Origin: an uncultured Gammaproteobacteria bacterium
GTDB lineage: Bacteria > Patescibacteriota > Patescibacteriia > UBA9934
Length of the DNA stretch: 61,139 nt
Reading direction: 5' to 3'
NCBI GenBank assembly: GCA_964599455.1
Contig: CAZREA010000001.1
Location: forward strand, 419,829-480,967
Shown: positions 7,151 to 48,837 of the stretch, one piece after another
How positions within the stretch are numbered: position 1 is the first letter of the stretch
Layout of the letters: each line of letters begins with the position of its first letter
The notes under the pieces: generated by a model
Databases searched by the model: none
What the model saw: the letters and a program-made list of their open reading frames with translations, nothing else
Told to the model about the DNA's origin: nothing
Position numbers and translations under genes: made by a program

Positions 7151-7591
7151 TCAGTCCCAACGCGATGATTGACAAATCTCTTCCAACACCTCTTGCTCTC
7201 CTTCAATAAGATCAAGAGACTCTATTTCCAACAAAGAAAAAAAGGCTAATTTATCAACTTTCGGATCTTTTTGATGCAAAATATTCTCTTCATGAATTGG
7301 AACGCAAAGAAAAGGCAACTCTACTATTTGCAGCTGTGTTCCATCAGCTTTTTCTCGATAACGAATAAAGGTACGAGATAACATTCCGAGCACACGAACC
7401 TCCACACCGCTTTCTTCTTCCACTTCACGCACGACCGCCTCTTCAGGCGATTCGCCATACTCTAACTTACCTCCCAATAAATTCCATTTTCCATGAATAG
7501 CAGGAATCTCTGGTTCATATCTTCTTCCCAGCAAATAGCGACCATTTACATCGCGAACAATCGCCAAAACGACCACTAGCTGCTTCGTCAT
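7151..7591 (-). CDS. NUDIX hydrolase
   Basis: Nudix box GGKLEYGESPEEAVVREVEEESGV (GX5EX7REUXEEXGU). Confidence 0.9.
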   Translation of the reverse strand: MTKQLVVVLAIVRDVNGRYLLGRRYEPEIPAIHGKWNLLGGKLEYGESPEEAVVREVEEESGVEVRVLGMLSRTFIRYREKADGTQLQIVELPFLCVPIHEENILHQKDPKVDKLAFFSLLEIESLDLIEGEQEVLEEICQSSRWD

Positions 7592-36796: not shown

Positions 36797-36818
36797 GGGG
36801 TCGGGCATGCCCGACCCC
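36797..36818. repeat. P3 perfect palindrome GGGGTCGGGCATGCCCGACCCC touching the leuS stop codon
   Basis: 22-bp perfect palindrome. Confidence 0.8.
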
Positions 36819-39800
36819 TACAGCACAAAATTCACAATTTTTCCTTTTACCACGATCGTCTTTTTTGGCTCGTTCGTCAGGTGCTTGGCAACGTTTTCGT
36901 TTTGTTTAGCAATGGCGACAATCTGTTCATCAGTAGCGTCGGCAGGAACAGTGATGTTCCCACGTAATTTACCGTTTACTTGAACCGCAATCGTCATCTC
37001 GTCATCAGTTAGGAATGCAGAATCAAATTGCGGCCAAGGCTGTTCTTCAACAAATCCTTTTTCGCCAATCTTCTCCCAAAGTTCGTTCGCAACATGCGGA
37101 GCAAAAGGAACGAGCATCATCAATATAAGCTTAAAAGATTCTTTGGTAATCACCTTTTGTTCGTAGACATCGTTCACCAATGTCATCAAGGCTGCAACAG
37201 CCGTATTAAAACGATATCCTTCAATATCTTTGGTGATTTTTTCGAGCGTTTTGTACACTTTCTTTTTTAATGACGCATCTTCGCTGTCAGAAACAAACTC
37301 TGCCATACGCACGACGCGATCCAAAAAACGACGTACGCCAATCACGCCATTCATCGACCATGGTACTGGCTCCTCAAACGGTCCCATGAAAAGCTCATAC
37401 ACACGTAGCGTATCTGCTCCGTACGCTTGCACAATGTCATCGGGATTGACGACATTACCTTTTGATTTGCTCATCTTGGTTCCGTCTTCTGCGAGAATTA
37501 ATCCATGAGCAATACGCTTCTGACAAAATTCGGAAAATGGCACATGTCCGCGATCGAACAACACTTTTGTCCAGAAGCGTGCATACAATAAGTGACGCGT
37601 GGCATGCTCCATCCCACCGTTGTACACATCAACTGGCAACCAGTGTTTAAGCTTATCTTTGCTGGCAAACGCCTGATCATTATGCGGATCGGCGTAGCGC
37701 AAAAAATACCAACTCGACCCTGCCCAATTCGGCATCGTATCGGTTTCGCGTGTGGCTTTGCCCCCACACTGCGGACAAGACGTGTTCATCCAATCAGGAA
37801 TCAACGACAACGGTGACTCGCCCGTATCGGTTGGTTCGTATTTTTCAACCTGCGGCAACGTTACCGGCAAATCTGTTTCCGGCACCGGTACCCAACCATC
37901 ATGTTCCGATGCACATCCATTTTCACAATGCACGAGCGGAATCGGCTCACCCCAATAACGCTGTCGCGAAAATACCCAATCACGCAAACGATAGGTCACT
38001 TTCTTGCGTCCACTTCCCTGCTCTTCGAGCCAAGTAGTAATTTTTTGGATCGCATCATCAGAGGTAAGTTCGGAGAATTGATCTGAGTTCGTAAGGATGC
38101 CTTTTTCAGGCGTACATTGATCGTCTCGACCAATACGTCGCCACACTTCTTTCATGTCGTCAGCAGTAATAAAGCTCATCACTTCATCACGCGAGATCCA
38201 AACAAGATCAGCAAGTGCTTTTTCATCGTCGGCAATCTCTTGGTGAGTATCGTCAGCAAGTTCAAATAACATGCCAGAGAATTCTGCCCAACGATTTTGT
38301 TTTTTTACCATGTGATAAAACTGGGAATGGATAGAATCCCCAAGTTTACGAACCAAACGCATGTTTTGATAACCTGTTTCCTCTTTAATTTCGCGCATCG
38401 CAGCTTCAATCGGCTCTTCCCCATCTTCAATACCGCCAATCACAAATCCCTGCCACGTATTCGCTTTATACTTCACGCACAAGTATTTCTCTTCATTCCA
38501 ATGTTTAATAACACACACTGCAGCTTTTCGTTTTACAAAAGGAGCATCAGGTCGAAGAGCATCATCACCGCTTGATCGAACGAATAATGATTGCACGACC
38601 GAACGAATTGATAAGTGATATTTCTTCGCAAACGCCCAATCACGTTCATCATGCGCCGGCACGGCCATCACCGCACCTGTTCCATACGAACCGACAACAT
38701 AGTCCGCCACCCAAATCGGAACCTTTTCGCCATTTGCCGGATTCACGGCATACGCACCCGTAAAGACCCCGGTTTTTTCACGACTGAGGTCACCACGCTC
38801 TTCATCGGTTTTATTTTTCGTAGTAGCAACATATGCATCAACCTCAGCGCGCTGTGCGTCGGTCGTGATTCGCGAGACCAAGGGATGTTCCGGAGCAAGA
38901 ACAACATACGTAACACCGAAAACGGTATCAGGACGAGTGGTAAAAACGGTAATAATCGGATTTGTCAGCTTAAAATGATAAATATAAACGAGATCATCGT
39001 CGGTAATTTCACGCTTGTAGTACGTAGAATAAATCTTACGTCGCTCCTCAAGCGTCTGCGCATCATGCTCATGGCCCGGAAAATCAAGAGGAACATCCTT
39101 CAACGAACGCTCTTCAATCTGCGTCACTTGCGCCATAGCAAAAACTTGCTGCGCTTCCCAATTAATCAACTTCACAATATCGCCTTCTTTGATATTCTTC
39201 TCCATTCTAAAAGTCACTGTTTTGTTACCAGACATGATCTCATCACAAAGCCAAGGACGGAATTTGAAATATTCGATCGGTCGAGCAGCCGTTTCTCCAA
39301 TCACAAAATCAATCTCCGCACCTTCACTTCTTCCAATCCATTCTTCCTGCTCTTTTTTAATTTTCGGCAAATAGTCGACGCCTTTGAGATCTTCTAACAG
39401 ACGATCGGCATATTTTGTCATCGCAATCATCCACTGTTCTTTTTCGCGCTTCTCAACTGGTGTTCCGCAGCGTTCACACACACCACCAGCTGCTTCTTCA
39501 TTTGCCAAACCAATCTTATCCTTCGGACACCAATTGATCGGCATCTTCGCCTTATAACAAAGTCCATGCTTAAAAAATTCCAAAAACATCCATTGCGTCC
39601 ATTTGTAATACGCGGGATCAGTTGTATCAACTTCGCGGGACCAATCAAAACTAAAGCCGATGGATTGTAATTGTCGGCGAAACGTTTCGATGTTTTGTTT
39701 GGTCACGATTGACGGATGAATGCCGGTTTTGATGGCATAATTTTCAGCAGGCAATCCAAACGCATCCCAACCCATGGGAAAAAGGACATTCATTCCTTCC

Positions 39801-40000
39801 ATGCGACGCTTACGCGCTATGACATCAAGTGCGGTGTAACTCCGCGGATGACCGACGTGCAAACCAGCTCCTGATGGATAGGGAAACTCGACAAGAACAT
39901 AATATTTTTCTCGCAAATCGTTTTCTTTTGCATAAAAGATGGCACTTTCATGCCACTTTTTTTGCCACTTGGGATCAAAAAACCGATGATCGTACGACAT
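36818..40000 (-). CDS. leuS: Leucyl-tRNA synthetase with two extra inserted domains (ASCH-like and Nudix)
   Basis: HIGH (HVGH) and KMSKS present. CP1 editing motifs TTRPDT and AVPAHDERD present. 1060 aa, roughly 200 aa longer than typical bacterial LeuRS. Confidence 0.95.
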   Translation of the reverse strand: MSYDHRFFDPKWQKKWHESAIFYAKENDLREKYYVLVEFPYPSGAGLHVGHPRSYTALDVIARKRRMEGMNVLFPMGWDAFGLPAENYAIKTGIHPSIVTKQNIETFRRQLQSIGFSFDWSREVDTTDPAYYKWTQWMFLEFFKHGLCYKAKMPINWCPKDKIGLANEEAAGGVCERCGTPVEKREKEQWMIAMTKYADRLLEDLKGVDYLPKIKKEQEEWIGRSEGAEIDFVIGETAARPIEYFKFRPWLCDEIMSGNKTVTFRMEKNIKEGDIVKLINWEAQQVFAMAQVTQIEERSLKDVPLDFPGHEHDAQTLEERRKIYSTYYKREITDDDLVYIYHFKLTNPIITVFTTRPDTVFGVTYVVLAPEHPLVSRITTDAQRAEVDAYVATTKNKTDEERGDLSREKTGVFTGAYAVNPANGEKVPIWVADYVVGSYGTGAVMAVPAHDERDWAFAKKYHLSIRSVVQSLFVRSSGDDALRPDAPFVKRKAAVCVIKHWNEEKYLCVKYKANTWQGFVIGGIEDGEEPIEAAMREIKEETGYQNMRLVRKLGDSIHSQFYHMVKKQNRWAEFSGMLFELADDTHQEIADDEKALADLVWISRDEVMSFITADDMKEVWRRIGRDDQCTPEKGILTNSDQFSELTSDDAIQKITTWLEEQGSGRKKVTYRLRDWVFSRQRYWGEPIPLVHCENGCASEHDGWVPVPETDLPVTLPQVEKYEPTDTGESPLSLIPDWMNTSCPQCGGKATRETDTMPNWAGSSWYFLRYADPHNDQAFASKDKLKHWLPVDVYNGGMEHATRHLLYARFWTKVLFDRGHVPFSEFCQKRIAHGLILAEDGTKMSKSKGNVVNPDDIVQAYGADTLRVYELFMGPFEEPVPWSMNGVIGVRRFLDRVVRMAEFVSDSEDASLKKKVYKTLEKITKDIEGYRFNTAVAALMTLVNDVYEQKVITKESFKLILMMLVPFAPHVANELWEKIGEKGFVEEQPWPQFDSAFLTDDEMTIAVQVNGKLRGNITVPADATDEQIVAIAKQNENVAKHLTNEPKKTIVVKGKIVNFVL

Positions 40001-48669: not shown

Positions 48670-48837
48670 GGGGTCTCCATGACCTTTTCCGAGATGACCA
48701 AAGTAACTCCCCAATTTGGCGGAGTTATTTTTGTTAACACGCCGAGTTGAGCCAAGAATGGGGCCGTGAGGTCAATCGGTTAACCCGTCAGGTTTGTCAT
48801 CTCGAAAATGTCGGTTCGAATCCGGTCGGCTCCACCA
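48670..48837 (+). ncRNA. tmRNA-like RNA (possible minimal ssrA): tRNA-like domain, P2, one pseudoknot and a short tag frame
   Basis: The acceptor GGGGUC/GGCUCC has G3:U and the 3' end is ACCA. The T-arm carries a GGUUCGAAUCC loop. A 9-bp helix 48690-98/48796-804 takes the P2 position. A pseudoknot spans 48703-45. The frame GCC..UAA lies at 48751-83. Only 168 nt. Confidence 0.5.

Follow-up and report, generated by a model that had tools for sequence, protein, structure and literature searches.

A Nudix hydrolase domain embedded in the CP1 editing domain of leucyl-tRNA synthetase from a candidate-phyla-radiation-type bacterium

A Nudix domain within CP1

The DNA considered here (the window: a 61,139 nt stretch of contig CAZREA010000001.1, GenBank assembly GCA_964599455.1, positions 419,829 to 480,967 of the forward strand) belongs to a candidate-phyla-radiation-type bacterium and carries leuS, the gene for leucyl-tRNA synthetase (LeuRS), in which a Nudix hydrolase domain is embedded within the CP1 editing domain. 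LeuRS enzymes with this dedicated Nudix family are widespread in public data and apparently undescribed in papers. The probability that the window LeuRS has this architecture together with a probably active Nudix domain is put at above 0.9.

The insert occupies amino acids (aa) 471-629 (159 aa; 38114..38590 on the minus strand, as for all leuS features below), in a CP1 loop about 20 residues past the catalytic Asp motif of that domain, a position referred to as site B. The assignment is supported by Pfam, by alignment to the LeuRS of Thermus thermophilus (Tt; PDB 1h3n), where it stands for 13 residues (Tt 364-376), by AlphaFold2 and by Foldseek. The Pfam NUDIX profile (PF00293) matches aa 491-616 (38153-38530) with an E value of 1e-15 and 58.4 bits (cut-off 21.1), covering profile positions 2-127 of 134, and a motif scan finds the canonical Nudix box (GX5EX7REUXEEXGU) as GGIEDGEEPIEAAMREIKEETGY at aa 522-544 (38369..38437). 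When aa 465-635 were modelled with 45 aligned homologues, AlphaFold2 returned a mean predicted local distance difference test score (pLDDT) of 92.6 and a predicted template modelling score (pTM) of 0.86. Within the full-length model (pLDDT 85.7, pTM 0.75), the Nudix region including its entry linker scores 91-97 and the exit linker 81. The domain is thus confidently predicted to be a well-folded, autonomous-looking alpha/beta/alpha sandwich.

A Foldseek search of the PDB with the Nudix model gave 520 matches at E<=1e-3, and all 50 of those listed are Nudix enzymes with a probability of 1.0. They include 2azw, the Aquifex Ap4A (diadenosine tetraphosphate) hydrolase 3i7u (aq_158), a putative CTP pyrophosphohydrolase, Escherichia coli RppH (among them its Ap4A complex, 7sp3), Mycobacterium smegmatis MutT1, Chlamydia CT771, M. 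tuberculosis Rv2985 and DIPP enzymes. By sequence, the best PDB matches are the lupin and Aquifex Ap4A hydrolases, but these are weak (E ~1e-4, 15-24% identity), and the best NCBIfam models, those for RppH, reach at most 37.9 bits against a cut-off of 118 (PRK00714 equivalogs); the insert falls below every NCBIfam equivalog cut-off, RppH included. The Ap4A hydrolases and RppH (aq_158, 3I7U/3I7V; lupin, 1F3Y; RppH, 4S2W/7SP3; CT771) are its top sequence and fold neighbours of known function at only that low identity, and share with it the fold and a complete box. Unlike them, the insert carries an N-terminal extension specific to its family, along with invariant K..NR, E and W residues, and is embedded in a synthetase rather than free. 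A Phe or Tyr at +17/+18 after the box is conserved in the 45-copy alignment of relatives, as are the residues of the box itself; an aromatic residue some 16-18 positions past the box is reportedly found in ApnA hydrolases.

The surrounding synthetase appears, from its motifs and alignments, to be a complete and working bacterial enzyme, equipped for both synthesis and editing. The open reading frame (ORF; 36818..40000) starts with ATG and is uninterrupted over 1060 aa, and its product scores 968 bits against the NCBIfam model leuS_bact (TIGR00396; cut-off 548). It aligns to 1h3n in four collinear blocks (E 3e-220), and is collinear with canonical bacterial LeuRS (T. thermophilus 1H3N, E. coli 4AQ7) in the catalytic body, CP1, anticodon-binding and C-terminal domains. 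Pfam tRNA-synt_1 covers aa 11-218 and Anticodon_1 aa 911-1024. The HIGH motif, here HVGH (aa 48-51; 39848..39859), and KMSKS (aa 842-846; 37463..37477) were both located by motif scan. The N-terminal part of CP1 (aa 350-470; 38591..38953) is identified by alignment to 1h3n and by the LeuRS editing domain profile PF13603 (aa 344-471, 199 bits, profile positions 15-142 of 185). Its C-terminal part (aa 630-669; 37994..38113) follows the Nudix insert directly: the TIGR00396 match picks up again at aa 627, and aa 630 onward corresponds to Tt 377 onward. All of the editing motifs are intact, namely the T-rich motif TTRPDT (aa 354-359; 38924-38941), GTGAVM (aa 440-445; 38666-38683) and AHDERD, the HDxxD motif with its conserved Asp (aa 449-454; 38639-38656). 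Other LeuRS motifs are likewise in place (the CP1 motif at aa 443-465, GILTNSDQF at 633-641, a conserved stretch at 668-688 and YRLRDW at 670-675). The window LeuRS differs from 1H3N in three respects: the 159 residues of the Nudix domain, about 110 extra residues at a second insert described below, and the absence, near aa 842, of the leucine-specific domain (~Tt 594-636). The 750-800-aa LeuRS of related bacteria also appear to lack the leucine-specific domain.

An earlier note, made from the letters of the window alone, had placed a Nudix domain with a complete Nudix box at 38111-38593 (aa 470-630), as an internal CP1 insertion rather than a terminal fusion, in a continuous leuS frame with HIGH and KMSKS intact. 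Each of these points is borne out, with CP1 sequence lying on either side of aa 471-629, and the profile search and structure prediction that it proposed as checks gave a PF00293 and a leuS_bact match, both above cut-off, and a confidently folded domain. It had also named an assembly chimera among the outcomes that would overturn its claim. Such an artefact, whether by chimeric assembly or by a gene-calling fusion, has a negligible probability, since the insert lies inside the gene without breaking its frame, three contigs with the same flanking genes (including separate assemblies of runs SRR16481182 and SRR16481183) encode an identical 1060-aa product, the insertion recurs in well over 100 independent assemblies, and its junctions are repeated in many unrelated genomes. 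Base composition along leuS shows no break at either insert.

A Nudix family housed mainly in synthetases

The distribution of the architecture was surveyed in the 120 LeuRS clusters (90% identity) nearest the window LeuRS, and in the best 80 LeuRS loci, taking one genome per species. PF00293 is found in about half of the 120 clusters, and nearly all of these Nudix-bearing clusters show the canonical box GG[IV]E.GE......RE[IV].EETGY; a Nudix domain lies at the same site in 67 of the 80 species-representative loci (with a canonical box in 59). The distance between the P.HD..D and RDW..SRQR.WG motifs is 200-220 aa in the Nudix-bearing clusters, 58-96 aa in others, and just 30 aa in minimal LeuRS (750-800 aa) from related bacteria. 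Minimal enzymes of ~760 aa, without the leucine-specific domain and without the Nudix domain, indicate that the insert is dispensable for basic function. The Nudix-bearing genomes are labelled by their submitters as Patescibacteria, Paceibacterota, Saccharibacteria, Uhrbacteria, Moraniibacteriota, Nomurabacteria and Taylorbacteria. The same insertion is seen in gut metagenome-assembled genomes (MAGs) that submitters labelled Bacilli, Tenericutes or Erysipelotrichaceae, with the box variant GT[IR]..[DEN]E......REI.EETGY (loci including L014, L025-L027, L029-L035, L038, L040-L041 and L043), which suggests either gene transfer or mislabelled bins.

The layout is therefore frequent among Patescibacteria, is shared by some gut MAGs labelled Bacilli and is not unique to the window, so that the rarity implied by the earlier note does not survive. 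Its suggestion that the architecture had not been described stands in part: full-text literature searches found no paper describing a Nudix-bearing synthetase (an eLife paper, PMC7159879, considered as a possible description, deals with an unrelated subject), but public collections already hold automatic PF00293 matches on these common proteins, which are named merely 'leucine--tRNA ligase'. The NCBIfam release 20 matches of the window LeuRS include no curated model of the Nudix-bearing type. They do include isoleucyl-tRNA synthetase with an N-acetyltransferase domain (NF040702, ileS_w_GNAT), a curated example of a class I bacterial synthetase with an extra enzymatic domain, in which both the synthetase and the added domain are different.

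An exhaustive phmmer search with the Nudix insert against 1.84 billion cluster representatives recovered no more than 681 proteins with E<=1e-3, of which 209 had E<=1e-10. A word-indexed search with the insert alone returned two matches, which reflects the sensitivity limit of that method and not rarity, as the full-length and exhaustive searches recovered the family. LeuRS segments were mapped onto the best 150 of the phmmer matches (50%-identity clusters), of which ~105 are whole or fragmentary LeuRS and ~40 free-standing proteins of 155-190 aa; among these 150 clusters, no hosts other than synthetases or their fragments and free proteins were found. This is a small Nudix family that lives mainly inside aminoacyl-tRNA synthetases, at three sites in LeuRS and in one prolyl-tRNA synthetase (ProRS). 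In LeuRS, site A is the hairpin leading into CP1, site B is the Nudix position of the window enzyme, and the C-terminal catalytic half contains site C. In certain LeuRS (P0123, P0124, P0063 and P0075 among them) the domain is present two or three times. The copies within one protein are 20-44% identical and group by insertion site, which rules out a recent intragenic duplication and points to old events.

Conservation within the family is strong. Over 240 copies, K566, N569, R570, E593 and W601 (window numbering) are nearly invariant, and at site B the box residues E541 (149 of 149 copies), E537 (148/149), E540 (146/149), R536 (137/149) and E528 (132/149) are retained, while about half of the site-A copies carry E528->Q and R536->A/T. 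The Nudix insert is 72% identical to its nearest relatives and the whole protein 70-74%, indicating that the domain is under the same constraint as the synthetase. Given the conserved catalytic residues, the Nudix domain is probably an active pyrophosphohydrolase. The alternative that the fold serves as a non-catalytic structural or tRNA-binding appendage, for instance to offset the missing leucine-specific domain, could draw on the absence of that domain from the window LeuRS, on the substituted site-A copies and on the variant boxes in 8 of the 67 Nudix-bearing loci. It is nonetheless very unlikely, as every catalytic box residue is kept in the window LeuRS and in ~90% of site-B copies, and the ~760-aa minimal enzymes manage without either domain.

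The ProRS case (P0226) is a 643-aa class II enzyme with the family Nudix between its anticodon-binding and C-terminal domains, and a box that is one residue short and has R->K. None of the 80 closest ProRS loci (JGI metagenomes) carries the insert, so this fusion is rare. Four other proteins (P0185, P0211, P0254 and P0269) align to P0226 across the junction of its anticodon-binding domain with the Nudix, and three of them begin at or near the start of the anticodon-binding domain; they appear to be two-domain proteins that join an anticodon-binding-like domain to a Nudix. In P0001, P0233 and P0237, the Nudix is paired with a CP1 fragment. P0001 (L001:4158-4985; 275 aa), present in four samples, aligns without gaps to aa 447-660 of the window LeuRS, across both junctions; its CP1 fragment is degenerate and no longer has the T-rich editing motif. 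The P0001 gene lies among radical-SAM genes (MoaA/viperin-like and variant), two CYTH genes, recN and lysS. Downstream of secE-nusG-rpsR lies the gene for a free homologue, P0002, which overlaps that for a PAP2 phosphatase. In the P0002 genome, gyrB codes for at least 1660 aa and contains two intein-splicing domains (L005:1-2589).

Several relatives are mosaics of up to 1722 aa, with serine or alpha/beta hydrolase, HAD phosphatase or DUF559 endonuclease-like domains and up to three Nudix domains (P0030, P0042, P0063, P0075, P0102, P0115 and P0122). By Pfam, the layouts (sites in brackets) are Nudix(A)-CP1-Nudix(B)-Ser_hydrolase(C) in P0030, DUF559(A)-CP1-Nudix(B) in P0042, Nudix, Nudix, Hydrolase_4(A)-CP1-Nudix(B)-HAD(C) in P0063, CP1-Nudix(B)-HAD(C) in P0102 (HAD_2 being the type seen among relatives) and Ser_hydrolase(A)-CP1 in P0122. 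Sites A and C thus accept varied hydrolases, and site B almost always this Nudix. In a Paceibacterota MAG from Baikal (L074), site B is instead taken up by ~100 aa of unrelated sequence, and the tblastn match to LeuRS spans ~4.4 kb.

The second insert and neighbouring genes

The earlier note recognized one insert in the CP1 region and overlooked a second, at aa 235-349 (38954..39298), in the beta-hairpin at the entrance to CP1 (site A). Compared with its closest relatives (71-74% identity, 953-974 aa), the window LeuRS shows a clean insertion of ~110 aa between EGAEIDFVI and ITVFTTRPDT that displaces a short hairpin, and the insert stands for Tt 237-242 of 1h3n. Pfam ASCH (PF04266) matches aa 247-345 (E 3.6e-9, 37.7 bits against 21.2) over nearly the whole profile (positions 3-101 of 103), and E. 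coli YqfB (1te7, 9kyf) matches at E 3e-4. The octapeptide GNKTVTFR (aa 258-265; 39206..39229), of the YqfB-type GK[T/S]R variant, aligns to GRKTITIR of YqfB, with the Lys, Thr and Arg corresponding to K21, T24 and R26, and a Tyr corresponds to Y89. The first three are catalytic in YqfB, which as an ASCH protein acts in E. coli on the free nucleoside N4-acetylcytidine (ac4C) as an amidohydrolase (PMC6972931); octapeptide classes of ASCH proteins are described in bioRxiv 10.64898/2026.02.27.708502. Unlike YqfB and the ASCH ac4C amidohydrolases (1TE7, 9KYF), the insert is embedded in LeuRS, has Asp in place of E74, and lies below the YqfB equivalog cut-off (PRK04980: E 3e-6, 27.4 bits against 93).

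This second insert is a putative YqfB-type ASCH domain, a fold assigned by sequence comparison: in the full-length AlphaFold2 model, aa 237-345 have a pLDDT of only ~40-46, a low confidence attributable to the lack of homologous rows in the alignment there. No other LeuRS among the 120 nearest clusters carries ASCH, and a word-indexed search with the insert alone found no relatives. The ASCH insert is therefore the rare element of the window LeuRS, and the Nudix the common one. A 2026 preprint reports that 19 of 19 ASCH proteins tested remove ac4C from tRNA. A role of the insert as an eraser of ac4C12 on tRNALeu was considered and is unsupported, since position 12 is a G in the sole tRNALeu(CAA) gene of the window, making eukaryote-style ac4C12 impossible there.

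The neighbours of leuS (comEC, an NTPase gene, ndk, a murA-like gene and methyltransferase genes) offer no functional hint. An Rfam scan of the window detected tRNAs only. One of these matches (48760-48834, plus strand) is weak, at 32.5 bits just over the gathering score, and was not called by ARAGORN. A separate, free Nudix gene is found at 7151-7591 (minus strand; 146 aa) with the box GKLEYGESPEEAVVREVEEESGV, and its nearest models are of the MutT type, all below their cut-offs.

Possible roles of the embedded Nudix

Dinucleoside polyphosphates of the Ap4A type are our preferred substrate class, a tentative choice with a probability of about 0.4. Attack of ATP or ADP on the aminoacyl-adenylate would give Ap4A- or Ap3A-type by-products, which the Nudix domain would cleave asymmetrically, perhaps along with Np4 (nucleoside tetraphosphate) caps derived from them. 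Tethering the hydrolase to the synthetase that makes its substrate would ensure constant, one-to-one co-expression and would recover adenine nucleotides in a genome with little nucleotide biosynthesis, while aminoacylation and editing by LeuRS would go on unchanged beside it. The formation of Ap4A from aminoacyl-adenylate and ATP, with synthetases as a main source, and its degradation by Nudix enzymes such as RppH and aq_158 have been described (PMC10148737). We favour this substrate class because the class I LeuRS and class II ProRS that carry this Nudix have the aminoacyl-adenylate in common (as well as tRNA), because the nearest characterized neighbours in sequence and fold include the Ap4A degraders aq_158 and RppH, because the invariant basic residues would fit a polyphosphate ligand, and because base sanitation is probably covered by the separate MutT-like gene. 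The earlier note had already raised Ap4A clearance as something that the insert could couple to aminoacylation or editing; that idea is plausible, and the neighbours just named and the ProRS insert lend it some indirect support.

A number of observations weigh against an Ap4A-type substrate. The likeness to Ap4A hydrolases and RppH is weak by both identity (15-24%, E ~1e-4) and score (37.9 against 118 bits), and the Foldseek scores of MutT-type, DIPP and ADP-ribose enzymes are nearly equal to theirs. The classical strong producers of Ap4A are the lysyl- and phenylalanyl-tRNA synthetases, not LeuRS. Clearance of Ap4A leaves the two- and three-copy LeuRS unexplained, and the Nudix is kept in proteins that lack an adenylate-forming core, both those with a CP1 fragment (P0001, P0233, P0237) and those with an anticodon-binding domain (P0185, P0211). 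Finally, the unrelated hydrolases at neighbouring insertion sites fit a less specific explanation.

That explanation is one of hitch-hiking: the surface loops around CP1, in an essential and constitutively expressed gene, would be permissive landing pads in streamlined genomes, where captured salvage or house-cleaning hydrolases (Nudix, YqfB-type ASCH, HAD, serine hydrolases) gain co-expression and have no link to leucylation. The variety of occupants speaks for it, with Ser_hydrolase, Hydrolase_4, HAD_2 and DUF559 at the hot spots of relatives, a non-Nudix insert at site B in one genome (L074), and in the window LeuRS an ASCH domain whose E. coli counterpart acts on a free nucleoside; in addition, ~30% of the family clusters are free-standing, single-domain proteins. 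However, the family is overwhelmingly synthetase-bound, at three LeuRS sites and in ProRS with no other host among the best 150 clusters, and the occupant of site B is almost always this Nudix. On balance, hitch-hiking is a possible but not a likely account.

Alternatively, the Nudix may act on tRNA, stripping a pyrophosphate-linked group from an end of tRNALeu and so adding repair or de-protection to aminoacyl editing. Candidate groups would be a 5'-triphosphate or nucleotide cap, as for RppH, or a 3'-pyrophosphate or ADP-ribose-type adduct on A76. LeuRS CP1 binds the tRNA acceptor end, and the Nudix is placed on that domain; the RNA pyrophosphohydrolase RppH accounts for the top NCBIfam models and for many of the Foldseek neighbours; the two-domain proteins pair the Nudix only with tRNA-handling modules (a CP1 fragment or an HGTP anticodon-binding domain); and the companion inserts (ASCH, HAD phosphatase, esterases) can be read as tRNA-directed, in keeping with the preprint on ASCH proteins as erasers of tRNA ac4C. 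We nevertheless consider a tRNA substrate unlikely. The scores against RppH fall far short of its family cut-off, mature bacterial tRNAs carry a monophosphate at the 5' end, and we know of no such tRNA adduct in these organisms. The CP1 fragment of P0001 is without the T-rich motif, and the genes around it are like those of nucleotide metabolism (radical SAM MoaA/viperin-like, CYTH) and not tRNA genes. A broader version, in which CP1 serves as a docking platform for tRNA-directed hydrolases (Nudix, ASCH deacetylase, HAD phosphatase, esterases) and the Nudix clears caps, 5'-triphosphate, 3'-pyrophosphate or ADP-ribosyl adducts from tRNALeu, is decidedly improbable, although, if true, it would represent a new form of synthetase-resident tRNA repair or quality control that goes beyond the hydrolysis of mischarged amino acids.

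Few aminoacyl-tRNA synthetases have an editing domain that houses a second, unrelated catalytic domain. The LeuRS hot spots that host ASCH, esterase, HAD and nuclease-like domains amount to a natural experiment in domain insertion, and are a source of insertion-tolerant sites for protein engineering. This Nudix family occurs at three LeuRS sites, in up to three copies, across many ultra-small bacterial lineages, and also in a class II ProRS. Such a pattern points to selection having tied the hydrolysis of pyrophosphate bonds to synthetase chemistry or to the handling of tRNA, a link on which we found no paper. If the substrate is Ap4A or Np4 caps, the enzyme would be the first in which the making and the removal of an alarmone are hard-wired together; if it is a tRNA end, the domain would provide a new proofreading or repair activity.

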